A stretch of 64,000 nt of DNA from an uncultured Francisella sp. (GTDB taxonomy: Bacteria > Pseudomonadota > Gammaproteobacteria > Thiomicrospirales > Thiomicrospiraceae). The first letter of the stretch is position 1. Each line of letters opens with the position of its first letter. Positions 7,912 to 47,694 of this stretch are shown here, one piece after another. Under the pieces are notes generated by a model that did no database searches, was not told the origin of the DNA, and saw nothing but the letters and a program-made list of their open reading frames with translations. Location: positions 34,719 through 98,718 of the forward strand of contig CAZSGH010000002.1 in the NCBI GenBank assembly GCA_964606405.1, in the 5' to 3' direction. Made by a program: the position numbers and the translations under genes.

Positions 7912-10320
7912 TTAACTTAACCTCAGCTCATCAACTTGCACCATAAACAAGTTTGGCTCGGGTACTTCTTGGACATATTTTTGTGGATTAGCAAGTAACA
8001 CAACGTTGAGTACCGCTGTTCTCTTTTTACTATCATCATTAGACTTAATCGCAAATCGAAACAGCTTGTCTCCGCTAGGCTTGCGCACGATTAAATTGCT
8101 TCTTATCAGGCTAGCTTGTACCTGCCGCCAGTCATCTAAGCCCGCAAACTCACAGAACAGATTGAAAATAGCTGGCGATACCAATCCAAGCCCTTCTTTT
8201 AGGAAGTGCACAGGCGCTTTAGGCACGTTATAAGCAACAGTTCCATTAGCAAGAGAGGTTTGCAGCCAGTAAATAAACTGCATGGTTAATGGCTCTGGCT
8301 CCCTATCCTGAGCGCTCAGTAAATTAGGTGAAGGCAACTTAATTGGAATGCCTAATACAGGCTCTTGCTTGGTTAAGGCATCATTGATCGCAGTGCGAAC
8401 ATCTTCATTCTCTGGTAAAAATGCAGCTGGCTGAACTTGAGTTGACTCATGATCTTCTGGAAGCTTAGGCAAATCATTGGCATCTTCTTCGTTTACTACT
8501 GACAATGATTCTGGTTCATCCGATGATTGCACCTCTATTACAGGCTGTTCCGACTGAGAGAAATCAGCGAAAGGGTCGTCTTCGTCAATCTCAGAAACAG
8601 GCTTCACTTGAACAGCTAGTGTCGCTTTTTTATCTTGTTTTGGTTTTGGTGACGGTTTGAAAGCTGCCAAGTTAGGCGTTGGTAAGGATTCTGTTTTATT
8701 TTTTACTTTTGGTTTAGGTGCTTCATCTCGACTAACGGCCGCATCGTCGTTTAATGGAGTGCTTACTGAATCACCAATATCCTCAATTATTGTCTCAACG
8801 TTCGTTTCTTCTGATGGCAAAGAGTGATTTGAATCAACTGTTGCTGGCTGTTTAACGGTTGTCTCAATATCTGCTGGTTGCGTAGACTGTGTTTGATCCT
8901 GTTTGACAGGTACGGTCTTAGCTTCTGATGGCTTGGCTACTTTATCCCATGTATTTTTGATGGTAACACTACCCGTAAACTGCTTTGGATAGGCTGCAGT
9001 GTTATCTCCATACACGCAGTGCAGCGGGAATCTAAGTACGGTCAACTCATGTTTGAACTTGCCATTATTATTCGCTCCTTCAAAAATGCACGTCCAAATC
9101 GCTTTATTGTCAGGTGTCGGTACAATCTGTCCAAAGTCCTGCCAAGTGCTAAATAGACGGTCATTATCGGTCGGCAAACTCACTAGATAACTACTTCGGT
9201 TGGCAGTAATCCAATCCCTAACACGGTCAGCGGTCGTCTTACTCACCATGTAGATGTCACCTTCATGCACAAAGGCAGCACCACCTGACTGATTTAGCTT
9301 AAATCCATCACTGAGCAACAGATGATTTAGGGACTCCATTAAAATCTCAATGAGCGGTCTGGTGCGAGCGACATTAAAGCGTACTTGTGTTCCTTGACCA
9401 ATATCCATTTTGACAGAGGCTTGGTCAGCCTTGGTAACGATGTCACTAATCGACTGCACCTCAAGCGTCGTATCACGGGCACCAGTCAAATAAGCACGCA
9501 AGGCTGTCATTAATGATGCGTTAGCACCAAGCCAGCTCATCATCGGTTTGGGGCATAACATCGGCAATAGATCAGCACCTAGCTGTGCATGCTCGCTATA
9601 GTTGTGATCCGCAAAGGTTACTCGATAGCGATCGATGCCAATCGCCGGCATACTGCCGCCTGAAGGATTCCAGCGCAATTGCTTGCCGTCACGACTCAAT
9701 CCATCAACTTGAATATCAGAAATAACTTTACCCGCATCATGTAAGCAGGCTGCGAGAATAATCGCTACTGTCCATCGATGTTGTTCGGCAGTACGTTCTT
9801 CTTGCGATACCCCTTTAGGTAATAGTCGTCCACGGCGAATACGACAGGCAATATTAGCGACTTCTATCGTATGTCGCGCTAATCCACCTGGTCCTGAGTG
9901 ATGATGCGATTGAGATGCGGGTAGCAGCTGCACCATTTCGACAAGCGCGTAAAATGTCTCTGATAGCCATTGTGAAGTTTCGGCATCGAGACCACTTTGC
10001 GCCAAAATAAGCTTTATTTTTGGTTCAACGCCCAAATGTTGCGCCAAAAGCTTGCCTTGGGTGGCAAGCAGGTAGCCATTTTGCTCCAATGAGTTTATGT
10101 TGAATGATTGTGGCAATTGCTTTGGTTGTTGGTCAACTTCTAGCTGTTGCTTCAGTTGATTGCGACCTTTGTGCCAATAATAAGCACTAGCAAGCGTTAT
10201 AGTCGTGCTGGCTACCAAAACACTTGCTTTAACAGGCTGGTTGATAGCCCAGTCGATGATGGTTGTTAGTTGGTCCAAGGTATATACAGCTTTGTATAAA
10301 CAACAAACCCAAGAAACCAA
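7912..10320 (-). CDS. traI: ICE relaxase TraI, HD-domain (PFGI-1/ICEclc class)
   Basis: 802 aa with an HD-type metal site (HHSGPGGLARHTIEV ... CLHDAGKV). A long acidic, Pro/Gln-rich linker separates the N- and C-terminal domains. Position next to traD. Confidence 0.72.
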   Translation of the reverse strand: MVSWVCCLYKAVYTLDQLTTIIDWAINQPVKASVLVASTTITLASAYYWHKGRNQLKQQLEVDQQPKQLPQSFNINSLEQNGYLLATQGKLLAQHLGVEPKIKLILAQSGLDAETSQWLSETFYALVEMVQLLPASQSHHHSGPGGLARHTIEVANIACRIRRGRLLPKGVSQEERTAEQHRWTVAIILAACLHDAGKVISDIQVDGLSRDGKQLRWNPSGGSMPAIGIDRYRVTFADHNYSEHAQLGADLLPMLCPKPMMSWLGANASLMTALRAYLTGARDTTLEVQSISDIVTKADQASVKMDIGQGTQVRFNVARTRPLIEILMESLNHLLLSDGFKLNQSGGAAFVHEGDIYMVSKTTADRVRDWITANRSSYLVSLPTDNDRLFSTWQDFGQIVPTPDNKAIWTCIFEGANNNGKFKHELTVLRFPLHCVYGDNTAAYPKQFTGSVTIKNTWDKVAKPSEAKTVPVKQDQTQSTQPADIETTVKQPATVDSNHSLPSEETNVETIIEDIGDSVSTPLNDDAAVSRDEAPKPKVKNKTESLPTPNLAAFKPSPKPKQDKKATLAVQVKPVSEIDEDDPFADFSQSEQPVIEVQSSDEPESLSVVNEEDANDLPKLPEDHESTQVQPAAFLPENEDVRTAINDALTKQEPVLGIPIKLPSPNLLSAQDREPEPLTMQFIYWLQTSLANGTVAYNVPKAPVHFLKEGLGLVSPAIFNLFCEFAGLDDWRQVQASLIRSNLIVRKPSGDKLFRFAIKSNDDSKKRTAVLNVVLLANPQKYVQEVPEPNLFMVQVDELRLS

Positions 10321-35434: not shown

Positions 35435-36841
35435 CTATTCCCCAAGCAGTTTACCAAAATCAATATTGATGACACTATAATCATTATCTGCAACTTCTAA
35501 AAAAGTGCTCTCTCTAAAGTAATAATATGAATCATTTAATTTTTTTATAACTTCATCAAATTCTAATAATTTAATTGGTTCATTTTTTACAAAAAAATCA
35601 TGAATGCGATTCATCGAGATAATTGATGATGCAAGACAAGTAAAAGCCAAAGCAAGCAAATTGTTCCCACTTCCTTCTTCAAGGTCTTTGATGAAGGCAT
35701 AGCTATTCGTAAGATCACAATCACACGCCCTTATCTCAACATTTAACCTATTAGTAATAATTTCAAGACGTTGACTAATAAATTTACGAAAAAGTAATAC
35801 TTCATCATATTTATTGTCCTGTATTAAACTCATCATTGTTATGAGTTCAGCAAACCAACAATTAGAGTTATTCACCAAGGATAGAAATAGTTCTTTTGCG
35901 ATCTTATTATTAAATGAAATAAGGTAATCAAACCTATTTTCAGTATACTCATCAATAAGATAAGTTTTATATATTGATGTTAATTCAAAATGAAATAGTC
36001 TATAAAGTCCATTAAGAAACTCTTCCAATGTTTGCGATTCAACCTCAATAAAAGAACGAACAAATCCATCTGGTAATAAACCAGAGAATTCTTTCATTTC
36101 TTCTAACAAACAATTTAGCTTCATCACGCCTGTAGCTACTTTATCAGCTGTCTTGAAGTTAGATTGGGAGTGATAGAATGACGTTAATTGCAGTTTTAAG
36201 TAAAATTTCGCATTAATTTCATTAATTTCATTAATATTTATAGTTGAATGCTTTATGGTTACATCCTGCCAGCTCTTATCTTTTTTCAATTCGTCATAGA
36301 TATCTACAGGGAGTACTCCTGTAATTGAACGACTCTTCCTAAGCTTAACATCAGAAAAAACGCGCGCTATAAGCTCACTACAATGAAAACTTAGTCTAGC
36401 GTCTCTTCTTTTACGTAGTTTTACTTTAAAATCAATTAAAAAGTTGTATGGTAGACCAAAATAATATAGTGCTTTACTAGAAATTTCATTTTGAAGATTT
36501 ACATTACCAGTAACCTTCTTGTTCCTCAATACTAAAAAACGTTCAACACCTTTATCGATAAAACCAGAAGATGATAAGCTGTCAATTGTTACACCTGACT
36601 TCAAAACATATTCAGGTAGCGAAAGCTCACGAGATACCATCTTCATCAACTCTCCTTTACTAGGTATTGAATGAAGCACAAGTCCCGAAGATATGACTAG
36701 ACCTACATGAGTAAACTCTTCCTGATAGCTTTTCGATCTTACTTTTTGATACAAAAGATTTATTTTAGCTAGCTTACCAGCGGACTTGATGAATAATACG
36801 TCACCAGGTTGTGGTACAAATTGTCCAACGTTTTTATCCAT
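35435..36841 (-). CDS. Permuted papain-fold (YiiX/NlpC-P60-like) peptidase domain fused to a ~270-aa helical domain
   Basis: Start at MDKNVGQF, where the ATG shares one base with the upstream TGA (TGATG). The order PGDVLF ... THVGLV (His) ... FHCSELIARVF (Cys) is as in permuted papain-like amidases. Confidence 0.6.
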   Translation of the reverse strand: MDKNVGQFVPQPGDVLFIKSAGKLAKINLLYQKVRSKSYQEEFTHVGLVISSGLVLHSIPSKGELMKMVSRELSLPEYVLKSGVTIDSLSSSGFIDKGVERFLVLRNKKVTGNVNLQNEISSKALYYFGLPYNFLIDFKVKLRKRRDARLSFHCSELIARVFSDVKLRKSRSITGVLPVDIYDELKKDKSWQDVTIKHSTININEINEINAKFYLKLQLTSFYHSQSNFKTADKVATGVMKLNCLLEEMKEFSGLLPDGFVRSFIEVESQTLEEFLNGLYRLFHFELTSIYKTYLIDEYTENRFDYLISFNNKIAKELFLSLVNNSNCWFAELITMMSLIQDNKYDEVLLFRKFISQRLEIITNRLNVEIRACDCDLTNSYAFIKDLEEGSGNNLLALAFTCLASSIISMNRIHDFFVKNEPIKLLEFDEVIKKLNDSYYYFRESTFLEVADNDYSVINIDFGKLLGE

Positions 36842-37317
36842 CACCCCACCCTCTCCAGCAGTGCATGGCAATGGGGTGACTGGGCGACAACGTCGGCGAT
36901 TTGATTGGCGAGTTCTTGATGCAAGTATTGCGAGCTTAGGTTGACCCAAACGAGTGCTAGACCAGCACTGGTGAAGGCTTCACTAAGAAAATTGTCACGT
37001 TTAATTCTGTCTTCGCGCTCATGAGATTTGTCGTTTAGTTCGACCGCGCACAGAAAGTTGAGTTGTTTATCAGTGATAACGAAATCGACATGCTTTTGAC
37101 TGACTTGAGAAAATAACCAATGCCAACCACTGCCCTTTTCGAACTGATTAACACTAGGCATAAGAATGTCGGAAACCCGAACTTTTCCGAACACACGGAA
37201 GGCATCGCCAGATATGGCATCGAGGGCATCTAAGAATTTTTGCTCCGCTTTGGTAAACAAAGCGCCTCTAGGCTTATAGAGGATGGGTGTAGTCATAATT
37301 AACTCGCTTTTCATCAT
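36841..37317 (-). CDS. DUF2726-like (restriction-endonuclease-fold) protein
   Basis: 158 aa. FTKAEQKFLDAL, RVFGKVRVSDIL, HVDFVI and AVELNDKSH fit the DUF2726 signature (D...E.x.K-like core). Confidence 0.62.
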   Translation of the reverse strand: MMKSELIMTTPILYKPRGALFTKAEQKFLDALDAISGDAFRVFGKVRVSDILMPSVNQFEKGSGWHWLFSQVSQKHVDFVITDKQLNFLCAVELNDKSHEREDRIKRDNFLSEAFTSAGLALVWVNLSSQYLHQELANQIADVVAQSPHCHALLERVG

Positions 37318-37358
37318 CGAAGTCAGCGGTTAATATACGCCTGAGCATTTAGTTTGTC

Positions 37359-37386
37359 AAAGGGGAAGAACATTCCCCTTTTTTAA
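37359..37386 (+). terminator. Hairpin plus T6; the stronger U-tract is on the plus strand
   Basis: AAAGGGGAA-gaaca-TTCCCCTTT followed by TTTT on the plus strand. The minus strand has only TTT. Confidence 0.45.
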
Positions 37387-37387
37387 G

Positions 37388-37927
37388 TTAATCGTCAATC
37401 TGTACACTCTCAAACCCACAACTGACCTTCTTAGTCTTGAGAAACTGATTGACCTCATGCAAGGTTAGCATGTCTCTATTGTGCAAAAGCTCAATACTTT
37501 CACGAAAGGTGGCGAGTTGTTGATAGTGCTTCTTCGCAAAAGCTACAATGCCATCCTCATAACTTGGCGCACTAGTTAGAAGAATACTAATATTTCGTGT
37601 TTGTTGAAACAGATCATCGCTTAACCACAATGAATGAGAAGATATTTCATTGATAATCGTGTGTGCATCTAGTAAACCATTCTTGTGTGAAAGCAGGATA
37701 TGGTACGGTAGTCTGTCATCGTCAATGACTGCTGTTTTTAAACTAGTAATCAGTTGTTGTATTGACTCGTATGCAGCGATTCGCTTTGCGATAACTAACT
37801 TGTAATAATCATGTTCATACCCACGATCTTTTACTCTGAGATTAAATCGCCCCGCTATGACTGCACCAATTGTGCCACCAATCACAGAGCTAGAAAGTAT
37901 TGCGATAACAAGTTGCTCAGTGGACAT
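37388..37927 (-). CDS. Hypothetical protein with N-terminal TM helix
   Basis: 179 aa. No family recognised. Confidence 0.45.
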   Translation of the reverse strand: MSTEQLVIAILSSSVIGGTIGAVIAGRFNLRVKDRGYEHDYYKLVIAKRIAAYESIQQLITSLKTAVIDDDRLPYHILLSHKNGLLDAHTIINEISSHSLWLSDDLFQQTRNISILLTSAPSYEDGIVAFAKKHYQQLATFRESIELLHNRDMLTLHEVNQFLKTKKVSCGFESVQIDD

Positions 37928-38133
37928 AATTAAGCTCGTTTAAAACTAAAAGTATCCCCATTGAATACTTCAGCAACAGGACTGGAAAGTTTAATACCAT
38001 ATTAGAAAGCCCTCTTATGACAGTGAATTCGGAGCTGCTCAACACGATAAATAAAATTATTGTTGTACATGATATCATTGAGGTGTGTGAAAAAGACAGA
38101 ATCATAGGCTGTTAATTTTTTAAGGAATAGATT

Positions 38134-38694
38134 GTGGTATATATAGTAAATCGCCTGTACATTGAGTTAAAAAAAGATATCCTATTCTTTGGCTCTTGTG
38201 GGGTATTAGTTGTATCTTTTTTCATATTACGCAGTGCATTTCAAGCACAAGGTGTCGGCTCCTCAGCATCATGGCCAGATGATCTTTTTTCTGATTTTAT
38301 ATCACTTGATGTCTTTGCCTTTTTATCGTTTGGATTTATTGTTCTAGCTTCTATCAATACTGCGATCTATTTGCTAGGTAAATCATGTACACGGCTTGAG
38401 GCTATAATTCAACATATTGAAAACCGCTTTACTCAACTTACAAGCTCAATCATGTCATTTAGTATCGGAATGGCCGTTGCTGCACTTGGTCATGCCATGA
38501 TGACATACACAGCTGGTGGTTTGGAGCTTGCCCTATTATTATTTGTGCTTAATACTTTACTGTTTGCTGGTTACTATGCAACGCTTTTATATGCTACTCG
38601 AGAGAAGCCTTTTGATAATTGGTGGGGTATATCAATTGGATTAACCCTAACATGTGCATGCTTTCTTTACCTTATCTTGAAAAATGTAAATTGA
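38134..38694 (+). CDS. Multi-TM membrane protein
   Basis: 186 aa with 5 hydrophobic segments, convergent with the cassette array. Confidence 0.5.
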   Translation: MVYIVNRLYIELKKDILFFGSCGVLVVSFFILRSAFQAQGVGSSASWPDDLFSDFISLDVFAFLSFGFIVLASINTAIYLLGKSCTRLEAIIQHIENRFTQLTSSIMSFSIGMAVAALGHAMMTYTAGGLELALLLFVLNTLLFAGYYATLLYATREKPFDNWWGISIGLTLTCACFLYLILKNVN

Positions 38695-38732
38695 GTAAAC
38701 CACTAATAAGGTGCTAAGAAAAACGTACTTTA

Positions 38733-38937
38733 GGTGTCGACCGCATAGCGGCGGAACCATGCTCAATCATTATTGTTTGCTACAATCAGTATTGATGGGG
38801 CATGGTTTGGGTAGTGGTGAAAGCAGGGCAGTAATCATATTCGGCTACTGCTGTTCCAACCCTAACTCGAATCGGCAATGCCCAGCTGAACTGGTCAAGT
38901 CGCACAGCCTCCCTCGCCCTCATCCGCAGTCTGTCCG
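38733..38937 (-). repeat. Conserved non-coding element, copy 1 (core only)
   Basis: About 90% identical to 40784..41078 apart from a 90-nt indel. Substitutions are spread evenly over all codon positions in every frame. Confidence 0.85.
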
Positions 38938-38960
38938 CCTTGCACGTATTGTTAGGGTAT

Positions 38961-39902
38961 TTATTTGGCATGCGTAATAGCGTTTCTTGAATCTGAAATT
39001 ACTCGGTCATAGCGCTCAATAAAGACAAGCATCTTGTCGGGGCTTTCTTGAAATGTCTTAATCCAACGAGATAATGCCTGCGCTATTTCATCTATTAAAT
39101 CTTTAAAGTTGAAGTATTGAGTGCCTAGGTCGGGATTTGGAATATATCCACTTCTTGCGACACAAAAGCTAATTCTCTTTTCTTTTCCGGACAAGACTTT
39201 TCTGGAATTCAAATTAGACATGTGAAGAACTGAATTCCGAAGCTCCCACAGTTGATGCTCGGTAATTTCCAATTTTTCAATTGATGCATACTTTGTTAAC
39301 CATTGAACGAAACCTTCTTTAACATCACCAAGCTCGAGATATGCGATCGTATCGATGAATGAAACAAGAAGCTTCATACACGATACATAGTGCTTTGCGT
39401 TAAAAAGAAGTTTTATTGCATTAAAGTAATCGTCGTTCAGCAATCGAGGCATATCAAAACCATCTGGCGTGATGTACGACTCCAGGTAATCTGCCATCAT
39501 ACCTTTGCCGAGCTTTGGATGATCTTCAAATGAGCTCACATAGAATGGATCATACCCGTGTGAGACATCTATCCGCGCCTCACCATTTACAATTGGAGTA
39601 ATGCAGAAAAGTGGGCTTTCAGGAGCATTGTGGCTAGCGAAAAACTCTTCAAAGACCTCCATGCTTCTCCCCGCCCTCACCAGTGCCATGTAGGAAGAGT
39701 ACTTAAATATGCCATCGGAAGTACCAATCGTACATGACCGCACGTTAGCAATATCTGCTATTAAGCAGTCGCTAGAAACAGATCTTCTAAGGAGTTCCAT
39801 TTTTTCTTCATCAGAGCCATCCATTTCATGCACTGCCACACCGAGCTGACTAATTTTTTCACCGTCAGTATAGAGAAAGCAGTTAAATATTTTTTCCTTC
39901 AT
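38961..39902 (-). CDS. Cassette protein with possible C-terminal HEPN-like domain
   Basis: 313 aa. WELRNSVLHM fits the Rx4H motif. No family recognised otherwise. Confidence 0.5.
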   Translation of the reverse strand: MKEKIFNCFLYTDGEKISQLGVAVHEMDGSDEEKMELLRRSVSSDCLIADIANVRSCTIGTSDGIFKYSSYMALVRAGRSMEVFEEFFASHNAPESPLFCITPIVNGEARIDVSHGYDPFYVSSFEDHPKLGKGMMADYLESYITPDGFDMPRLLNDDYFNAIKLLFNAKHYVSCMKLLVSFIDTIAYLELGDVKEGFVQWLTKYASIEKLEITEHQLWELRNSVLHMSNLNSRKVLSGKEKRISFCVARSGYIPNPDLGTQYFNFKDLIDEIAQALSRWIKTFQESPDKMLVFIERYDRVISDSRNAITHAK

Positions 39903-39931
39903 ATAGACCTTAGAAATTTCTCGTGGTCAAA

Positions 39932-39997
39932 CACCCTAACGTGGAGTTGAGTCGCCGACGCGTCTTTTCGCGAAGGTCGCCTCGAGTGCAGTGTTGT
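39932..39997 (-). other. attC-like site
   Basis: Minus strand: GCACAAC...TCGAGGCGACC..CGCG-aaaaga-CGCG..GTTAGGG. It shares TCGAGGCGACC with the site at 41137. Confidence 0.6.
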
Positions 39998-40017
39998 GCG
40001 CCTGTGGCGCAAAACGT

Positions 40018-40554
40018 TTAGAACTCATGAGGCTCGATGCCGAAAGAGATGTTTGAATAGCAGATCTTTGGATTTCCTGGATGCGGTGCATAGGACGAAC
40101 CGATGGCGATCTTATACACGGCCTTCCCCTCGAAGAGATTTCTTAGTTCGTCAGCGCGGTCTCTGAACCGATAGACGCCCTTATTCTTCAACTGGCCAAA
40201 AACCAGAAGGAACTCATTGTTCTCCGCTATAGCTTTACGCAAATCGAGATAGCATTTTGGATCTTTCGGAGAATCAGTATTGACTTTCTTGGTATCGATC
40301 CGCGAGTAGAGATTCAGCATGAGTATCTTGCCGACGTGATGGAAGTGCTCGAAAACGAACCGCTCAATGTATTCGACCGTCTTATCAGCGTGATCTGCAT
40401 TGGCGCAACTCGGGTTCTGCCCAATTACACAAAGTGTATGACCATCTTCCCTATCGAAGAACGGAAGGCAAAGCTTGCACCTGTGCTCTCCGTTGGCCGA
40501 AAAAACGGCTTCGATTTTTGACTTATCAACTTTAGCGAAGTGAGGAGTTCTCAT
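40018..40554 (-). CDS. DUF1643-like protein
   Basis: Start taken at MRTPHF. CVIGQNPSCANADHADKTV resembles the DUF1643 signature (.NPS.A....D.T). Confidence 0.6.
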   Translation of the reverse strand: MRTPHFAKVDKSKIEAVFSANGEHRCKLCLPFFDREDGHTLCVIGQNPSCANADHADKTVEYIERFVFEHFHHVGKILMLNLYSRIDTKKVNTDSPKDPKCYLDLRKAIAENNEFLLVFGQLKNKGVYRFRDRADELRNLFEGKAVYKIAIGSSYAPHPGNPKICYSNISFGIEPHEF

Positions 40555-40577
40555 TGGAATGGATACCCACAACCCTG

Positions 40578-41100
40578 ATTATACGGCAAGCCTGCCGTAT
40601 AACACCCACTAACAGTTTTCATCATAATCAAAACCTCTCCTACCACTTCATTTTAATGTGCTGCATGACATATATCAGCACCTACTTTGGCAAGATAATA
40701 GCACAACAATTAATAACTGTGTACAGTCTTAGTTAAGCATTAATAGCGCAAATGAATCCATATTAAACGGCATTATGCCCATTGGTGTCGACCGCATAGC
40801 GGCGGCGCCATGCTCAATTATTATTAGTTGCTGCAGTCAGTATTGATAGGGCATGGTTTGGGGTTATCACCCTCGACGATTTTCTGTTCGCGGGTACTAA
40901 ACCAGCTCAAAATCGGTTTAGCAGGTAGGCTAATTTTGTGCGGTGACTTGGGTAGTTGTGAAAGCAGGGTAGGCATCATATTCGGCTACTGCTGCTCCAA
41001 CCCTAACTCGAATCGGCGATGCCCAGCTGAACTGGTCAAGTCGCACTGCTCCCCTCGCCTTCATCCGCAGTCTGTCCGACTGCTTTCGTGTCGGGATTGG
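40578..41100 (-). repeat. Conserved non-coding element, copy 2 (full length, 523 nt)
   Basis: Fills the 5' part of the DUF1643 cassette. Ends in a perfect 10-bp hairpin TTATACGGCA-ggct-TGCCGTATAA. Contains a -10-like TTAAAAT box and a short leader ORF. Confidence 0.85.
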
Positions 41101-41136
41101 TAGAATGGGCAATTCAATTAGCCACGGATTCTTGCA

Positions 41137-41202
41137 AACTAACATACAAGCAACCTGCCTGCTCAGCCTTTCGAACTGGTCGCCTCGAACGAAGTGTTAG
41201 AC
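41137..41202 (-). other. attC-like site
   Basis: Minus strand: GTCTAAC (overlaps the stop codon) ... GTTAGTT. Confidence 0.65.
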
Positions 41203-41859
41203 TGTACGCTTTACAATGCGAGTTGTGATCGCGTGCGCCGGTTGAATAATGGCTTCTCTTCGGGTGTATCGCTCTTTATCTTGATCGTAATAGAGACCTA
41301 TTTCTCCAATTCTGCACTCCAGAAATTCGACTCCAAGCATTTGACCAAGTGGCTTCATCGCTCCGAGACGGTTTGCCTCCGTGCGGTTTCCATGAGTCTC
41401 GATAGCGATAGAGGTACTGCAAGCTTTGTACCCAGTTGAGCTATAGTCAATGACAAGACCTTCACCGGTTGTTTGTTCCATATCACTGGATTGAGATGCA
41501 ACAGCCTTGCTTGAGCCTCGCCAGTTGGTCTTTGCCTGAAAGGGAAGACCCTTCTGACGAAGAGTTTCTCCGAACTCATTAGACACAGATATTTGGAACA
41601 AGCCGTCAGAACCGTATAAGCGCTCAGGAGCATTGATGCCTCGCCCACGGAGCTTCCGATAGGAGACTTGTACCGTGTACTCCCCTGAAGAGCCAGTGAA
41701 CGTGATTGGACTTTTCATTGCTAACGCCTGGCCTAATGCCCCAGTTAGCGCGTCTTCATCTGCACTATTATCGTCGAAGCTTGCTTCGGCTGTCGCTACC
41801 CCTGCTATGTAACGGTCACGAAGAAAGTCAATTAGATGAGAGGGCAGTAAATCACGCAT
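41197..41859 (-). CDS. Cassette protein, unknown (possible D..QxK nuclease-like core)
   Basis: 220 aa with GSDGLFQISV ... KGLPFQAKTN. The assignment is weak. Confidence 0.5.
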   Translation of the reverse strand: MRDLLPSHLIDFLRDRYIAGVATAEASFDDNSADEDALTGALGQALAMKSPITFTGSSGEYTVQVSYRKLRGRGINAPERLYGSDGLFQISVSNEFGETLRQKGLPFQAKTNWRGSSKAVASQSSDMEQTTGEGLVIDYSSTGYKACSTSIAIETHGNRTEANRLGAMKPLGQMLGVEFLECRIGEIGLYYDQDKERYTRREAIIQPAHAITTRIVKRTV

Positions 41860-41884
41860 ACCATATCCTTTTGTTGTGTTTGCA

Positions 41885-41938
41885 GTTTAACGTCAGAGTT
41901 AACCAGGCCGCGTGCTTTCGGCATCGATCTGGTTGAGC
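41885..41938 (-). other. attC-like site
   Basis: Minus strand: GCTCAAC-CCAG-atcgat-GCCG-aaagcacg-CGGC-CTGG...GTTAAAC, with an asymmetric bulge. Confidence 0.7.
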
Positions 41939-42750
41939 GATTTGTTAGGGATCTGTTCCGGGATTGACCGGAACCAGTACTTAAAACCTCTTTCTAATAT
42001 TTCCTTATCAAAGAGTTTTTGCTCCATATTCATAAATACATACCCGTATTGGTTGAGCAACACTAGCTGAATTTCATAGCCACCTGCTTCTAGGTATTTA
42101 TTCAACTCTTTTTCTTTAGGCAAAATAACTGTGGTCTTGGTTGTTTTATGAGGGGCTATGGAAATCATTCCATTTACCGTCATACCATTTTCTGGTATCT
42201 GCACTTTTGCGCTGCCACTATATATAACAGATTGGGTCCCTGGAGAAACGGAACGCACAATATAAAATTCCGCCTTCCTATCTAAATCCGAGTTTTCATT
42301 CCATGTACTTTCAATCGTAACAGGTATCTTGATTTCCTGAAGCGCAACCTGCTGCTCTTCATTACCTTTTTTTGACGAGGATTCCAAATTTATTGTGTTA
42401 ATGAAGTTGCCAATGAATATAAGCAAAACACCAGCAATTACGCTGACCATTAAATTACCGACAAATCCTTCGTGCCATGACTTCTTGACGATTCTCTGAA
42501 CCTCGTTAGATATGGGTATGCGCTCAGAATCAGCCGATTTATCATCGGGTCCATTTGCTGACAAAAGCTCATCAATTAGATCTTTTATTGCTCTTCTATA
42601 ACCAGACCCTTCATCCCGATTACTTAATTGGTAGTCCGCTTTTTTAAGCACCGAAAGGGGAAATGACTCTAGCTCTGAGCGGTCACCATTCTTTAAGTAC
42701 CGCATTGCGGCACCCATAACCGCTTGCGATTCTTCATCTCTTGCTACCAT
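41899..42750 (-). CDS. Cassette protein, bitopic membrane protein of unknown function
   Basis: 283 aa with a single central TM helix (LMVSVIAGVLLIFIGNFI) and a beta-rich C-terminal half. Confidence 0.5.
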   Translation of the reverse strand: MVARDEESQAVMGAAMRYLKNGDRSELESFPLSVLKKADYQLSNRDEGSGYRRAIKDLIDELLSANGPDDKSADSERIPISNEVQRIVKKSWHEGFVGNLMVSVIAGVLLIFIGNFINTINLESSSKKGNEEQQVALQEIKIPVTIESTWNENSDLDRKAEFYIVRSVSPGTQSVIYSGSAKVQIPENGMTVNGMISIAPHKTTKTTVILPKEKELNKYLEAGGYEIQLVLLNQYGYVFMNMEQKLFDKEILERGFKYWFRSIPEQIPNKSLNQIDAESTRPG

Positions 42751-42763
42751 ATTTCTTATTGAT

Positions 42764-42817
42764 TCCTAACGTTTGAATTCAACGAGCTGGGCGGATTTTG
42801 CTCAGATCTGGTGAAAT
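42764..42817 (-). other. attC-like site (outer boundary uncertain)
   Basis: Minus strand: ATTTCAC...GAGC-aaaatccgccca-GCTC...GTTAGGA. Confidence 0.5.
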
Positions 42818-42834
42818 GATGGGGCAAGCGGCAA

Positions 42835-43356
42835 CTACGCATGGTTATTGACCGCTTTCCAAAGGGTGAAGACTGCTGGGTCGTTAATGCCCAAGTCGGA
42901 GAGTTTGTCAGCGATGCCGTTGACGTAGGATAAGCATGTGCCATCAGTGCCTGACGCAGCCAACACCATTGCGGCTAGCTCTTCGGTAGCCCTTCCTTCA
43001 ATGACATTTTGTCCGTTGTAGAGCGGGACAAGGGCCGACACTTCCGATTGATCCACAAGGCATACCAATAGCTTGTGAAGTCGGAATGCTTTTCCCTCTC
43101 GCTCTTCGAGGTAGGACAGAACTTCCACCTCCTGCGCATCTGGGAATTGAAAAGCAATGCCTCGACAAACGCTGGCATCAAGCTTAGAGAGATTGAGAGT
43201 TGGACCAGGAGCAGCTTTCGTACCCCAATTCCGCACCGATGCTTTGTTGAACCTGCGGCAATAGCCAGGGAGGTCAGCCACTGCTCGGCGAGTACAGCCA
43301 TGCTTGGCTTCCCAACCATCCCACATAAGCGACCCGTACCCAAACACCCACATCAT
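42835..43356 (-). CDS. Gamma-glutamylcyclotransferase-like (AIG2/ChaC family) protein
   Basis: Start at MMWVFGYGSLMWDGW, the typical FGYGSL N-terminal motif. Confidence 0.65.
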   Translation of the reverse strand: MMWVFGYGSLMWDGWEAKHGCTRRAVADLPGYCRRFNKASVRNWGTKAAPGPTLNLSKLDASVCRGIAFQFPDAQEVEVLSYLEEREGKAFRLHKLLVCLVDQSEVSALVPLYNGQNVIEGRATEELAAMVLAASGTDGTCLSYVNGIADKLSDLGINDPAVFTLWKAVNNHA

Positions 43357-43389
43357 CAATTCCTCAGTAGATCGGCGGTAGCTGTTGCC

Positions 43390-43446
43390 GCCCAACGTAA
43401 AATTAGCCGGCTCCGCGCTTTTGCGGAGTCCAGGTTGAATTTGGGT
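43390..43446 (-). other. attC-like site
   Basis: Minus strand: ACCCAAA..CTGG-A-CTCCGC-aaaa-GCGGAGCCGG..GTTGGGC, with an extrahelical A. Confidence 0.7.
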
Positions 43447-44627
43447 CAGACCTCATCGGGATATTTGAACTGTAGCAAGAAATCATAAATGCTCTCGACC
43501 GTATACCTGATATCTTCGTCACAGCTCAATCCGTCTGGAAAAGTGTAATAGATCATTCGTTTTTCCTGCGGAACAATCTTGGGATAGGGTACGCAACCCT
43601 CCTCGAGTCCAGCAAGCATATCGTCGGGGATGGGCACAATGGTTACTCTCCACTCGTCTCCGAATTCATGTTTAATGCGTTTTGCTAAACGGGTTCTGAC
43701 GGCCTCCCAGCCCGGAATGTATTTAAGCGTAAGATCCAAGGCTACAACGACAGTTTGGTGTTGAGGTTCTGCGCCTGAATTCGGTGCAGTTGGTTTTGCA
43801 GTATTGTTGAGTGCTAAAGCCGCCACTCGCTCCCTCAGTGCCCTACAGATTTGCGTGTAGCCGTCGGGCGTGAATTCGTCAACCCAGTGCCGCTGAGAAA
43901 GACGGTCTGGAACGTCACAGACCTCCAACCGAATTGGAACGACAAATATCACGCCCTCAGGCTGCTCATCGGCGACGTCCAATGCAATTCGGATTTCCTT
44001 CTGTACGAAGCCAGATTTAATAGTTGAACGCGTGGAAAGGCAGACCAACACGACATCGGCAATTTTAACGGCGCGTCTGATTTCCAGTTGCCAGTCTTGA
44101 CCAGCAATTAGATCCTCTTCATCGAGCCATGGCGAGAAGCCATCTCGCTTGAGCTTGTGATACAGCTCGCGAACTTGTGGCTTGTCTTCAGAAGCGTGGC
44201 ACAAGAAAACTCGAAGTGGGCGATTGATAGGTGCCACTATCAATGGGGTACTCGCGGAATTGATCACCGGAGTCGCTAGTCCGTTCGCGGTGTGCATGAC
44301 GTGGTCGGAGAATTGAGGACCGAAACGTTTGATGATCTTCGAACGAAGCTGCTTCACCTCATCTGGCGTCGAAATTCCAAAACGATCACACAGATCTAAC
44401 AGGAACTCGTACTGATCCTTCGGCGAGAAAACCGCGAGATTCTGTTGAAGTGCTGTTCTTTTGTTTGGAGCGTCAAACGGATAAGTGCTGTGTGGAGGAT
44501 CAACATTGCAATCTACTGCCCGTGCGTTGCAGTACTCGACAATTTTAGAACCCGAGAGTCCACGTGAGGTATCCGCCAGAATCTCTGCTGCGTGGTTCAA
44601 AAAGGATGCGGGTATTCTGTCGGACAT
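43446..44627 (-). CDS. TIR-domain protein with unknown N- and C-terminal domains
   Basis: Start at MSDRIP with an AAGGAAG RBS. TIR core is RVFLCHASEDKPQVRELYHKLKRDGFSPWLDEEDLIAGQDW...VVLVCLS...FVQKEIRIAL, including the conserved Glu. Confidence 0.78.
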   Translation of the reverse strand: MSDRIPASFLNHAAEILADTSRGLSGSKIVEYCNARAVDCNVDPPHSTYPFDAPNKRTALQQNLAVFSPKDQYEFLLDLCDRFGISTPDEVKQLRSKIIKRFGPQFSDHVMHTANGLATPVINSASTPLIVAPINRPLRVFLCHASEDKPQVRELYHKLKRDGFSPWLDEEDLIAGQDWQLEIRRAVKIADVVLVCLSTRSTIKSGFVQKEIRIALDVADEQPEGVIFVVPIRLEVCDVPDRLSQRHWVDEFTPDGYTQICRALRERVAALALNNTAKPTAPNSGAEPQHQTVVVALDLTLKYIPGWEAVRTRLAKRIKHEFGDEWRVTIVPIPDDMLAGLEEGCVPYPKIVPQEKRMIYYTFPDGLSCDEDIRYTVESIYDFLLQFKYPDEV

Positions 44628-44641
44628 GCAGGTGCTTCCTT

Positions 44642-44689
44642 GGCTAACGTTCAAGCTAAGGGGCGGAGCGCTTTTGCGCCTGATTAGCT
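44642..44689 (-). other. attC-like site between the cyclase-like and TIR ORFs
   Basis: Minus strand: AGCTAAT-ca-GGCGC-aaaa-GCGC-T-CC..TTAGCT..GTTAGCC, with an extrahelical T. Confidence 0.55.
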
Positions 44690-45559
44690 TTTCTTTGTAT
44701 CGATGTTGCATAGGCAATCTTGATTCCGAGTGAAATTATTAGCTATCTCGTTGTGGTAGTTGGCAAGCCATTTGTATTTGGCTTTTACATCATCATCATT
44801 AGCACCAGTATAAGCACGTTTGATGTTTTCTGAATGTGTTTTTAGCCATTCATCGATATTCTGGCGATACCCTTCGTCCATGATTTTGTTTTTATCTTTC
44901 GGCGAAGAAAGGCGATATTCATCGGACCGCTCTTTTGATCTCTGCCATCCAACCCCTTCCAAGCATATGGTCATATAGTCAATGTAGAAATGCTTTTTAC
45001 CATTTATTTCCAGACATCTAAAAACTCTAGGTATTGGATCAAAATCATCGCTGTAGTACTCGCGATGGGAATGCTTTGAAAAATAATCATAAACTCGATC
45101 AGTGAGTGCGATAACTGGAACTGATACAGCAACTTCCGATTTATATGCGTTAACCATACTCTGGCTAATTAATGTGGCGTCCTTCTGATACCACCACCCA
45201 AGATCAAGGCCACCACGGATAAAGAGTGAATTGAGACAACAGACTCCTTGACCATAAGCAAAACTCGTAATCTCAGACATTATTGAGTCAAAAGTGCCTT
45301 CGAATTTCGTAGCTTCGGATTCGAGCGGTATATTAACCACCACACAATCTGAGAATGCCAAAACAGTTGTCTTGTGCATTTCTTGCACTTCGCGAGTTAA
45401 ATCATCGTCGGTTTCGAAATCAAAAGCGTCCTGAATGAGTTTTACGCCTTTATGTATTTCTTTGATGTCGTCTATGCTCTTCGCAGCAAGTACCTTGTTG
45501 CCAAAACCTAATATATCGATGAAGGCAGTGACTCCGACGGAAATATCTTTTTCGTCCAT
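44684..45559 (-). CDS. Nucleotidyl-cyclase-like (class III cyclase / palm-fold) protein
   Basis: 291 aa. VTAFIDILGFGNKV resembles F.DI.GFT, VLAFSDCVVV resembles the second metal Asp strand, and IRGGLDLG...ISQSMVNAYKSE resembles RIGIH.G...G..VN.A.R.E. No search was run. Confidence 0.5.
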   Translation of the reverse strand: MDEKDISVGVTAFIDILGFGNKVLAAKSIDDIKEIHKGVKLIQDAFDFETDDDLTREVQEMHKTTVLAFSDCVVVNIPLESEATKFEGTFDSIMSEITSFAYGQGVCCLNSLFIRGGLDLGWWYQKDATLISQSMVNAYKSEVAVSVPVIALTDRVYDYFSKHSHREYYSDDFDPIPRVFRCLEINGKKHFYIDYMTICLEGVGWQRSKERSDEYRLSSPKDKNKIMDEGYRQNIDEWLKTHSENIKRAYTGANDDDVKAKYKWLANYHNEIANNFTRNQDCLCNIDTKKS

Positions 45560-45580
45560 ATGGTATCGGTTGCTCTTGAA

Positions 45581-45646
45581 AACTAACGTTTGAGTTCAGC
45601 CGCCTGAACGCTTTTTGCAAAGGTCGGCTGCAACGATGGGTTGGGC
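45581..45646 (-). other. attC-like site
   Basis: Minus strand: GCCCAAC..TT-G-CAGCCG-A-CC..GGCGGCTGAA..GTTAGTT, with two extrahelical bases. Confidence 0.75.
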
Positions 45647-46453
45647 CTAGGCATTGATTAAACCAAACCCAGTATTGAAGTAAGGATGAATGGAAACGTC
45701 CATATGATTGAGCCAGTCTGCATACGAGGACAGATCGTTCAATAGCTGCACAAAAGGGAATCCTCGCAAGTCTTCTTCCAATGGCATTAGGTAGAAGGTG
45801 TCTTTCGGAATTACGCAACCGGTCGACGCGCGTGTTTCACTTCGAAAGAACCTAATCATGTATTTCCGGTTAACGACTATTCCTTTCGGATAGCGGCGGT
45901 ACGGAATATTAGGATGGTTACTATAAAAGGCATTTACATGAGCAAGGCACGTTTCGCCGCTGATACCTTCGTAAGCGAATACGTATAGCGACGGATGGCG
46001 TTCAAGAAACGCTTCGCTTGATCCGGTCTTAAGAATTTTGAAGCCAAATGCTTCCATGCTTGGCTCAGGAATGCTGGATAAATTAGTAAGCGCATCAATC
46101 AAGGAGGCCTGATTTAAGGTCGTTTTGACTGTAATTGCACCCGCAACGCTTTCTGTTGTGACAAAGGTCTTTTCATTTTCGTCAAACCTCACACCAAGGT
46201 CATTTGAAACAATCACATCGATCTGTCCGGATTCACTGCCGTTGTGAGAAATGACCTGTCCGCCAAGAGAGGCATAGAGTCGCCTTGGGAGATGGCGAAG
46301 CAAGAAATCTCTAACAATATCTTCCCGATTTGACCCAATGTCTGGTCGGTGTTGTGCGGTGCTTGCGATAAGCGAAGCACTTGCGATCTTGTCTGCGACT
46401 CCGTTGAAGTAGTTTTGAATTCTTGTCACCGCAAACTCCCTGTGTAGGCCCAA
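45647..46453 (-). CDS. PD-(D/E)xK-like nuclease-fold protein (DUF6602-like by recollection)
   Basis: GSNREDIVRDFLLRHLPRR, SGQIDVIVSND and TESVAGAITVKT give a D...E.K arrangement. The true start may be GTG at 46429. Confidence 0.55.
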   Translation of the reverse strand: MGLHREFAVTRIQNYFNGVADKIASASLIASTAQHRPDIGSNREDIVRDFLLRHLPRRLYASLGGQVISHNGSESGQIDVIVSNDLGVRFDENEKTFVTTESVAGAITVKTTLNQASLIDALTNLSSIPEPSMEAFGFKILKTGSSEAFLERHPSLYVFAYEGISGETCLAHVNAFYSNHPNIPYRRYPKGIVVNRKYMIRFFRSETRASTGCVIPKDTFYLMPLEEDLRGFPFVQLLNDLSSYADWLNHMDVSIHPYFNTGFGLINA

Positions 46454-46458
46454 CCATA

Positions 46459-46733
46459 ATTATACGGCAAGCCTGCCGTATAACACCTACTAACAGTTTT
46501 CATCATAATTAAAACCTCAGTTTAACAACAACTTCATTATAACGTGCCGCATAACATATTCTGCACCTATTTTTGCAAGATAATAGCACAACACATAGTT
46601 ACTGTGATCAGTATCGAACGGGCATAATTTAAGGCTTCTGCACATCGGCGATGCCCAGTTAAACTGGTCAGGTCGCACACCCTCCCTAGCCTTCATCCGC
46701 AGTTTGTCCGACTGGATTTTGTGTCGAAATTGG
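46459..46733 (-). repeat. Conserved non-coding element, copy 3 (internally deleted)
   Basis: Has the same hairpin, leader ORF and promoter-like part as copy 2, plus the distal ~95 nt of the core. The central ~270 nt are missing. Confidence 0.85.
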
Positions 46734-46735
46734 TT

Positions 46736-47308
46736 TCATACTGACAGAGCGTACCCCATAAATTCATTTTTAGTTTTACTTGTTTTGGAGGACAAAAACT
46801 CTTTAAGTTTATTAAAGTCATCAGGGTATAAATTGTTATACACGTCCCATGTAACTTTTATAGCTACAATAATAGGCATAACAACAAGGAAAAAGACTAG
46901 CAACACAGGAGATCTTGCGATAACTCCAAAAGCCATAATCATTGATAGTTTCTTTTCTAATAAGGCAACTTCACTTAATAAGACTGGATTATCTTCACGA
47001 AAAAAAGTTGTTAAGGGAGCACATCTTGCGTTCACATTGCCTTTAAGAAAAAGGTGAAACGTCAGCAGCCTTTGCCAAGTGGCTTTGTGAGTAAATCTTA
47101 TGAGAGAATTGATCCTTCTAACACCTTCAATATAACCATCTTCATCAAAAGAAATTGTGTTATTAGCTGCTAGATTAAAAAGCACATCGCGTTGCTCAAA
47201 AAGCCTTTGCCTAACAACAGACTCTATCAAAGATGGCCACAAGTAAAACCAAAGCACTAATAAAAACAGAAATGCGAAACCATTAATCATATCTGATAAG
47301 CTAATCAT
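46736..47308 (-). CDS. Membrane protein
   Basis: 190 aa with TM helices at both ends, last gene of the recombinase operon. Confidence 0.45.
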   Translation of the reverse strand: MISLSDMINGFAFLFLLVLWFYLWPSLIESVVRQRLFEQRDVLFNLAANNTISFDEDGYIEGVRRINSLIRFTHKATWQRLLTFHLFLKGNVNARCAPLTTFFREDNPVLLSEVALLEKKLSMIMAFGVIARSPVLLVFFLVVMPIIVAIKVTWDVYNNLYPDDFNKLKEFLSSKTSKTKNEFMGYALSV

Positions 47309-47319
47309 ATTTCTTATCC

Positions 47320-47694
47320 TTAATTGTCACTTGGATTTGTTGAACCACTAGGCAATATACCACTAGATTGACGATTAGGATGAATCATCAGCTCTAACTC
47401 TCTGATTCGTTCATGCATTATTTCTGTTTTTGATTTTCGAAAACGTCGCTCCATAAAGCCCCACAATGCAAGCCCTACTAATGCCAATGTACACCAGATA
47501 GGTTTAAAGAAAAAACCATTATTACCATCATCGAATGCAACACTAATATCTGCCAAGGTGGTTAACCCCGCAAACTTTGGAATAATCTCTATTGCAGCAT
47601 AAGCTAAAACACCGACCTTTCCCAGCCCCGACAAAAGACTAAACGTCTTGTCGATCACCATCTTAGTAAGTTCAAATTTTTGCTGTTTAGTCAC
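47320..47694 (-). CDS. Membrane protein
   Basis: 124 aa with 2-3 TM helices. Confidence 0.45.
   Translation of the reverse strand: MTKQQKFELTKMVIDKTFSLLSGLGKVGVLAYAAIEIIPKFAGLTTLADISVAFDDGNNGFFFKPIWCTLALVGLALWGFMERRFRKSKTEIMHERIRELELMIHPNRQSSGILPSGSTNPSDN

Follow-up and report, generated by a model that had tools for sequence, protein, structure and literature searches.

A thrice-repeated element in the cassette array of a Francisella conjugative element is probably a composite of integron attC and attI parts

Integron platforms and a repeated element

In integron theory, one attI site and one promoter (Pc) lie beside one integrase gene (intI), and attC clusters that have no integron integrase (CALINs) are viewed as stockpiles devoid of a promoter. 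Sedentary chromosomal integrons are now known to bank anti-phage systems. Here, we describe an element that occurs three times in a 64,000-nt stretch of contig CAZSGH010000002.1 from an uncultured Francisella sp. (the whole stretch is referred to as the window), which is part of an integrative and conjugative element (ICE) with the repeats in its cargo region. Taken in the orientation of the cassette genes (minus strand), the element is probably a composite of integron parts rather than an RNA gene, comprising an attC-type site (module A), a spacer (module B), and an integrase-less attI docking platform with a promoter and a leader mini-open reading frame (mini-ORF; module C).

Module C resembles the attI1/Pc/ORF-11 (ORF-18) region of class 1 integrons in having a pair of L-box-like and R-box-like sequences, a G|TT crossover, and a promoter, here predicted, directed into the cassettes. 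As with attI1 ORF-11, a short ORF led by a Shine-Dalgarno (SD) sequence runs over the crossover and has its stop codon supplied by the inserted cassette, and translation of the attI1-spanning ORF-11 or ORF-18 couples ribosomes to the first cassette (PMC8876359). However, module C has no sequence similarity to attI1 and no adjacent intI, carries a 10-bp palindrome just upstream of the core, and is present six times in one genome, with two modules in one array; its mini-ORF is also longer than ORF-11, at 24 to 26 codons. The attI sequence type, the intergenic layout, and the attC flavor (with a CGG-A-CA L'' box) are those of the sedentary chromosomal integrons of the genus (genomes G006, G008, and G009) and family, but these have intI 95 nt from attI, where the modules in the window have none.

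CALINs are thought to be usable by an integrase encoded elsewhere and are cut off from Pc, and attI is unknown for most integrons (Cury et al. 2016, PMC4889954). The array in the window contains two or more attC sites with no intI close by, as CALINs do, but whereas CALINs are defined by attC only, arrays here retain an attI with a promoter-like region of their own, and there are two in one array. Module A is comparable to the Vibrio cholerae repeats of the V. cholerae superintegron, being an attC-type repeat of about 100 nt that is 80 to 98% identical between cassettes of unrelated content; unlike those repeats, its seven known copies are all in one ICE lineage, and most are followed by spacer B rather than by another cassette. 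All of these components (attI, Pc, an ORF-11-like ORF, attC, and CALINs) are of known kinds, and what is unusual is an attI/leader detached from intI, present six times in an intI-less genome and twice in one ICE array. A limited literature search found no paper describing such orphan attI modules.

The attI region and the cassettes joined to it

Integron integrase genes are present in 30 of the 99 family genomes, including the same-genus G006 and G008, and a bona fide IntI is encoded in G009 on a contig other than that of its element (TIGR02249, 454 bits against a cutoff of 265). In both G009 and G006, the stretch separating intI from the first cassette reads ...GATGGCAATTTTGCCGTATAATTATAG|TTA, and the two sequences differ immediately past GTTA. 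For each element copy with module C, the best match on the G009 integron contig is this attI spot, with 15 to 18 identical bases (the G006 attI is matched as well), and the final ~105 nt of copy 3 can be aligned over the entire intI-attI spacer of G006 and G009, from a few bases off the intI start codon (z = 8.5 to 9 against shuffles). A ten-sequence alignment has as its conserved blocks TGTTATGCGGC, then GAGG..TTATGATGAA, and then GTTATACGGC-N5-GCCGTATAATTATAGTT, with similarity ending after GTT. The module is ~110 to 150 nt long and ends in GGCA-N4-TGCC-GTATAAT-N4-G|TT, such that the palindrome GTTATACGGC-N4/5-GCCGTATAAT is followed by four bases and then by the crossover. The family-wide form of this motif, GGCA-N4-TGCC-nTATAnT-N4-GTT, has 38 matches in the 99 Francisellaceae genomes, many of them beside intI, and the reversed control has none. 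Judged from these alignments, module C has its homolog in the full-length intI-attI intergenic region of the chromosomal integrons in two same-genus genomes, and is an integrase-less copy of that region as found in the genus.

The cassettes themselves point the same way. An integron cassette opens with six bases that come from the right half of the core site it formerly had, and these must therefore be complementary to the R'' box (inverse core) of its attC. The DUF6602 and DUF1643 cassettes begin exactly at the G|TT of module C, and their R'' boxes, GCCCAAC and GCACAAC, match the complements of G+TTGGGC and G+TTGTGG at 7/7 and 6/7 bases, respectively. Because the DUF1643 cassette joins at G|TT and has a cognate R'', the element lies outside it; the original prediction had copy 2 filling the 5' part of this cassette, which in fact starts at 40572, directly after the element. 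Together with the intI-attI homology, these junctions support, for the proximal third of the element, the earlier suggestion of a promoter or attI-like platform remnant.

Further modules in the same genome were found with a relaxed search, giving at least six in all, two on the window's own contig and four elsewhere (C9:44297, C9:59474, C17:30037, and C77:3571). In all six, the R'' predicted from the first 6 nt after G|TT (with no more than one mismatch) is present where the first ORF or operon ends and opens an attC-like site; a rough estimate of finding a cognate R'' by chance is ~0.08 per site. Two cassettes that follow an orphan module in G003, a genome without IntI, obey the same junction rule, as do two cassettes of the G009 integron. 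One of the additional modules, C9a, is followed first by a lipoprotein cassette, the attC of which belongs to one family with that of the DUF6602 cassette. No synteny was found between the C9 orphan platform and the flanks of the G006 and G009 integrons. The ICE attI sites of the window's genome (G000), G009, and G010 carry different cassettes, and insertion therefore continued after the platforms diverged.

Several features suggest that module C could also drive expression. Its predicted promoter boxes are of the sigma-70 type. An extended -10 box, TGCTATTAT, is common to copies 2 and 3 and resembles predicted boxes (TGCTATTAT and TGCTATGAT) in the G006 and G009 intI-attI spacers, and a second predicted box, TATGAT, is the positional homolog of the integron-spacer box. 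An SD sequence (GGAGAGG or GAGG) precedes ATGATG, and the mini-ORF that follows passes through the palindrome and the crossover; its frame (..CYTA..PYNY..) is open in six copies (copy 2, copy 3, C9a, C9b, C77, and the G009 ICE copy). At three independent junctions, the mini-ORF stop overlaps the cassette start, as ATGA for DUF1643 and as GTGA for both DUF6602 and C9a, and DUF1643 lacks an SD of its own. The corresponding stop in G003 is a TAG within the core. [quoted passage not shown] The original prediction held the 60- to 90-amino-acid (aa) ORFs of the region to be unlikely genes; as a correction to that account, the proximal end does have this short SD-led ORF.

We also note some variations around attI in related contexts. 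The G010 attI is split between the L-box and the G|TT core by a 190-nt duplicate of the DUF1173 3' end (C129, 3023-3212) with AAGG microhomology, which is an illegitimate insertion. Right after G|TT in the G009 ICE (9988-10030) and at C9:59400-59460 of the window's genome, there is a near-identical perfect palindrome, TTA(T/C)CCTGA(T/C)GC-TA(A/T)-GCGTCAGGGTA, with GTT..AAC-like ends, as in palindromes after attI in many other integrons of the family. Several attI motifs are far from an intact intI (in G035, G109, G086, and other family genomes), some of them beside a degenerate intI start (ATA for ATG), and the motif at G086:708419 has only a terminator and ~50 nt upstream. Inspection by eye places orphan attI modules directly downstream of toxin genes that are PIN/VapC-like (G003 C223) or PemK/MazF-like (G006 C52). 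The C17 attI-like site has a co-directional gene ~500 nt upstream (C17:28582-29559) coding for a 326-aa tyrosine recombinase. This protein shares 26% identity with IntI but does not qualify as one by TIGR02249, and it may be either unrelated or a recombinase of another kind that goes with this site.

The three copies, the attC-type site, and the spacer

The three copies are at 38733-38937 (copy 1), 40578-41100 (copy 2), and 46459-46733 (copy 3), and both the repeat finder and alignments agree with the original prediction in this respect. Copies 1 and 2 align without gaps over 79 nt (89.9%) and over 134 nt (91.8%), two blocks that the repeat finder pairs as 38733-38811 with 40784-40862 (90%) and 38807-38940 with 40948-41081 (92%). 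Between the blocks is an 85- to 86-nt indel with the edges ..TTTGGG and ..CTTGGG, and the description of cores ~90% identical apart from a TTGGG-flanked indel of ~90 nt was accurate. Copy 3 shares with copy 2 the distal ~90 nt and the proximal ~155 nt (83 to 94%) and is without the center; the repeat finder pairs 40570-40637 with 46451-46518 (94%) and 40675-40727 with 46560-46612 (83%). The element also looks noncoding, as had been proposed, with copies 1 and 2 separated over 213 nt by 19 substitutions that have no third-position or other codon-position bias, and with 9 to 12 stops per frame in all six frames of copy 2. The perfect 10-4-10 hairpin noted previously at the proximal end, TTATACGGCA-GGCT-TGCCGTATAA, is present in copies 2 and 3, followed by the core-like GTTGTGG in copy 2 and GTTGGGC in copy 3. 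Copy 3 is after the stop of a 190-aa gene and before DUF6602, copy 2 is before DUF1643, and copy 1 is after a 313-aa gene.

Five independent assemblies of the same organism are 100% identical to the window where they overlap (one is 99.8%, with a single gap); copy 1 is covered in all five, copy 2 also in three, and all three copies in one. This rules out an assembly artifact, for copies 1 and 2 at any rate. One contig from the European Nucleotide Archive, k141_274925 (against window positions 36002-39941), has one 9-nt gap relative to the window and ends within 1 to 2 bases of the attC R' at 39940-39934, at the boundary with the 313-aa cassette, which may hint at an alternative junction in the population.

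Module A is ~100 nt long and begins within a few bases of the upstream stop codon. From its sequence, it is an attC-type site, namely, the attC of the 313-aa cassette (copy 1) and of helix-turn-helix (HTH) and DUF2726 cassettes in related elements. The copy 1 R'' box, CCCTAAC, is 7/7 complementary to the start of the 313-aa cassette, G+TTAGGG (39940-39934), and also pairs 7/7 with its own R', GTTAGGG. In the related elements, the 5' box GCGCAAC of G009 fits the HTH cassette start G+TTGTGC at 6/7 bases, and TTATAAC of G010 fits the DUF2726 cassette start G+TTGTAT at 5/7. Internally, CGG-A-CAG pairs with (T)TGCCG or TCGCCG, leaving an extrahelical A, and the same L''/L' signature is found in canonical attCs of G009, G003, and C77.

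Folding of module A is consistent with this assignment. As single-stranded DNA, copy 1 folds with paired ends at -18.5 kcal/mol (z = -3.1), and copy 2 forms a long imperfect hairpin, likewise with paired ends (z = -2.2). The consensus fold of four module A copies retains the closing helix and has two compensated pairs, and one stem is changed on both sides in G009a (CAGTC-GGACA-GACTG to CATTC-GGACA-GAATG). The conserved local stems reported earlier are thus present as hairpins kept in the distal part of the element, and they are read here as attC structure at the DNA level rather than as RNA. Not every copy is likely functional. R'' is only degenerate in copies 2 and 3, copy 3 has also lost its 3' arm, and neither copy 2 (after a short spacer) nor copy 3 (after an ICE gene) has an R'' that corresponds to a cassette start.

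Module A, with or without B, is found by nhmmer only three times in the genome, all inside this array; the initial count of three holds for this module and not for the proximal module, which recurs on other contigs. Outside this genome, a search of the 99 family genomes, GTDB representatives, and a metagenome scan found it only in two same-genus ICEs, those of G009 and G010, where modules A and B are downstream of the same resolvase-DUF1173 backbone genes. When GTDB representatives and metagenome contigs were scanned for exact patterns of module A motifs, the scans returned only G009 and chance matches of 20 to 26 nt, and blastn against 72,556 plasmids gave no match.

Module B varies in size from 0 to 300 nt, has large indels between all copies and stops in all frames, and is ~60 to 75% conserved in G009; no ORF, protein homolog, or Rfam match was found in it. 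It is a fast-decaying noncoding spacer with no detectable function and may simply be DNA that, in an ancestral layout, separated the tail of one array from the platform after it. Modules A and B were also considered as a decayed intI, which was rejected when tblastn with the G009 IntI found no fragment in the element, and as a decayed protein gene, also rejected, the sole match of the longest ORF among 5.8 billion proteins being the ORF over copy 1 itself. A canonical B-C cassette with its own attC was likewise set aside; no cognate inverse core was seen in the sequence, which was inspected by eye only. The ~40 nt of unassigned sequence at 41104-41145 separate module A of copy 2 from the attC that follows the 220-aa gene. 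They may be what is left of a collapsed cassette without an ORF, but they do not conform to the inverse-core logic.

Table 1. Coordinates of the modules, predicted signals, and cassettes
Feature	Position	Strand	Remarks
Module A, copy 1 (attC of 313-aa cassette)	38860..38957	-	R'' CCCTAAC 38957-38951; R' GTTAGGG 38866-38860
Module A, copy 2	41001..41103	-	L'' CGG-A-CAG 41078-41072; L' TCGCCG 41019-41014; R' GTTAGGG 41007-41001; long imperfect hairpin, ends paired
Module A, copy 3	46641..46736	-	Truncated at 3' arm; abuts stop of 190-aa ICE gene
Module B, copy 1	38733..38859	-	Homology to copy 2 stops at GGTCGACACC; without module C
Module B, copy 2	40704..41000	-	Noncoding spacer; contains 86-nt stretch absent from copy 1
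Module C, copy 2	40567..40670	-	Distal box TGTCATGCAGC to attI core GTTGTGG; crossover between 40573 and 40572
Module C, copy 3	46448..46556	-	Distal box TGTTATGCGGC to attI core GTTGGGC (46454-46448); hairpin 46483-46460
attI palindrome, copy 2	40579..40602	-	Perfect 10-4-10 inverted repeat TTATACGGCA-GGCT-TGCCGTATAA; right arm contains L-box-like GTATAAT
Promoter-like site P1, copy 2 (predicted)	40695..40723	-	TACACA-17-TATTAT; TG extension; TGCTATTAT
Promoter-like site P1, copy 3 (predicted)	46580..46608	-	ATCACA-17-TATTAT; TG extension
SD and mini-ORF, copy 2	40551..40640	-	SD GGAGAGG 40640-40634; 24 codons, MMKTVSGCYTAGLPYNQGCGYPFQ*, 40625-40551; stop overlaps DUF1643 start as ATGA
SD and mini-ORF, copy 3	46426..46519	-	SD GAGG; 26 codons, MMKTVSRCYTAGLPYNYGWAYTGSLR*, 46506-46426; stop overlaps DUF6602 start as GTGA
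DUF1643 cassette	39934..40572	-	Starts TTGTGG 40572; ORF 40554-40018; attC R'' GCACAAC 39999-39993, R' GTTAGGG 39940-39934
DUF6602 cassette	45581..46453	-	Starts TTGGGC 46453; attC R'' GCCCAAC 45646-45640, R' GTTAGTT 45587-45581
Four extra attI/leader modules, chromosomal contexts	C9:44274-44399, C9:59459-59576, C77:3556-3623, C17:30019-30063		Cognate-inverse-core cassette after each

Mechanism, competing explanations, and ICE context

If the element is a composite of integron parts, an IntI supplied in trans would insert circular cassettes at the attI sites of module C; in one genome, the same-genus G009, intI is present together with a related ICE. Promoters in module C would transcribe the first cassettes, and mini-ORF translation across attI would bring ribosomes to the cassette start codon, as with ORF-11 and ORF-18. 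Copy 3 is at the head of the array, copy 2 is a second platform in mid-array that would restart expression of DUF1643 and the 313-aa gene, and copy 1 is a distal A and B only. A broader and more speculative possibility, to which we give some but not the greater weight, is that the genus runs a distributed integron in which scattered integrase-less docking modules are served in trans by the one chromosomal IntI of some strains, the ICE copies act as a shuttle that picks up cassettes (here of defense type) from sedentary arrays and brings them into new hosts by conjugation, and the mid-array platform re-promotes and re-couples the distal cassettes.

The locus would represent a docking-and-expression module that has been multiplied, separated from its integrase, and placed on a conjugative element. 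Should IntI use these sites in trans, cassettes of sedentary integrons could pass directly to a mobile element, a single array could offer several expressed "first positions," and the attI of nonclinical integrons would be recognizable by simple junction logic. For annotation, a conserved "noncoding element" is explained without a new RNA, and the cassette boundaries in the array are corrected.

Several points weigh against the composite interpretation. The intI gene was found neither in the window nor elsewhere in the 98%-complete, 111-contig assembly (the best TIGR02249 score is 24 bits against the cutoff of 265, and tblastn with the G009 IntI found only Xer-like genes), and the sites may be fossils, or intI may simply be unassembled. 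The same tblastn search found no intI pseudogene beside the window's modules, where unrelated DNA (module B or other flanks) lies at the place at which intI would start. The module A crossover is ambiguous between GTTAGGG and GTTGGAG, the 5' box of copy 2 is a poor inverse core, and covariation is thin, with two compensatory pairs and only seven module A copies in three genomes. The promoters are consensus matches alone, with P1 missing from the G009 and G010 copies, and the composite interpretation offers no reason for the recurrent order of an attC-type site, then B, and then attI. With intI absent from the genome, it is conceivable, although unlikely, that the copies are functionless debris, a recent duplicate of a flank, brought in as arrays of different ICEs recombined, with attI sites that are dead relics of integrons whose intI was lost. 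Substitutions between copies 1 and 2 (~91% identical) look neutral, each copy has different deletions, the G010 attI is split by a duplicated fragment of 190 nt, and decayed integrons are common in the family, with some orphan attI sites beside a degenerate intI start. However, while the middle decays, every copy preserves the palindrome and G|TT core as well as the SD and the frame of the mini-ORF, the attI sites of G000, G009, and G010 have received differing cassettes, and a cognate IntI coexists with the ICE platform in G009, all of which argue against debris.

That the element, or its A-B part, is a structured noncoding RNA or a cis-regulatory leader (a riboswitch or attenuator) of the downstream defense-type genes has a low probability in our assessment. 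Its local hairpins are conserved, with the G009a stem compensated on both sides, it is 5' of two genes, and a leader mini-ORF with a hairpin is superficially attenuator-like, but compensated stems are equally expected for an attC folding as single-stranded DNA. Moreover, no Rfam family matches at the gathering threshold in the window or at E < 5 in 38000-47500, the leader RNA folds are not above shuffles (z = -0.02, -1.4, and -1.55), the middle is dispensable and filled with indels, and copy 1 is 3' of a gene with nothing downstream on that strand. Scans for tRNA and tmRNA also found none. The earlier suggestion of an ORF-less cassette with a structured RNA thus finds no support, and the covariation that was sought extends to the two compensated pairs of module A. 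Very improbable is a small nonautonomous mobile element targeting cassette boundaries, such as a miniature inverted-repeat transposable element, an insertion sequence remnant, or a group IIC-attC intron fragment, another of the options originally raised. Group IIC introns target attC sites, and the copies are multiple and at cassette boundaries; against this, there are no terminal inverted repeats or target-site duplications, the two ends (CCAATCCCGAC.. versus ..CGTATAATCAGG) bear no relation to each other, Rfam gives no match to a group II intron, and module A is confined to this array and the two related ICEs among the 99 family genomes, GTDB representatives, and the metagenome scan.

All genes neighboring the element are on the minus strand, and the flanking conjugation genes are TraC, TraG, TraH, TraI_2, and TraD. 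TraC, TraH, and TraG_N are upstream, and the TraI_2 relaxase, the TraD-type coupling protein, and a tyrosine recombinase are further left. The repeats are in cargo between TraG and an SNF2 helicase gene, a region that also holds DUF6602, TIR, ChaC-like, DUF1643, and DUF2726 genes. The order in the window is an ICE gene, a truncated A with C, about four cassettes, A-B-C, the DUF1643 cassette, the 313-aa cassette with A as its attC, and B, with attC sites at 45646-45581, 39999-39934, and 38957-38860; further attC-like sites were seen by eye after the TIR, ChaC, and 220-aa genes, two of which folded no better than shuffles. The G009 order is DUF1173, A, the HTH cassette, A-B-C, and an 858-aa cassette, which looks like a cassette inserted at A. 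The three copies in the window probably arose by homologous or site-specific recombination between arrays; for copy 2, this may have been an unequal homologous exchange between ICEs or a set of site-specific events.

The resolvase and DUF1173 were considered as the recombinase of the array, an idea dropped because DUF1173 is a common plasmid backbone gene, present in ~2,500 mostly conjugative plasmids. DUF1173 has no nuclease active site (PMC3045609), and the array follows IntI-type G|TT logic, contrary to a resolvase/DUF1173 platform. We note, finally, that the first cassette of the genuine G009 integron (C54, 1186-2702) has two ORFs, the first with a nucleotidyltransferase-like GSYGRGT..D.D motif and the second apparently membrane associated, and that this cassette may be a compact defense pair.

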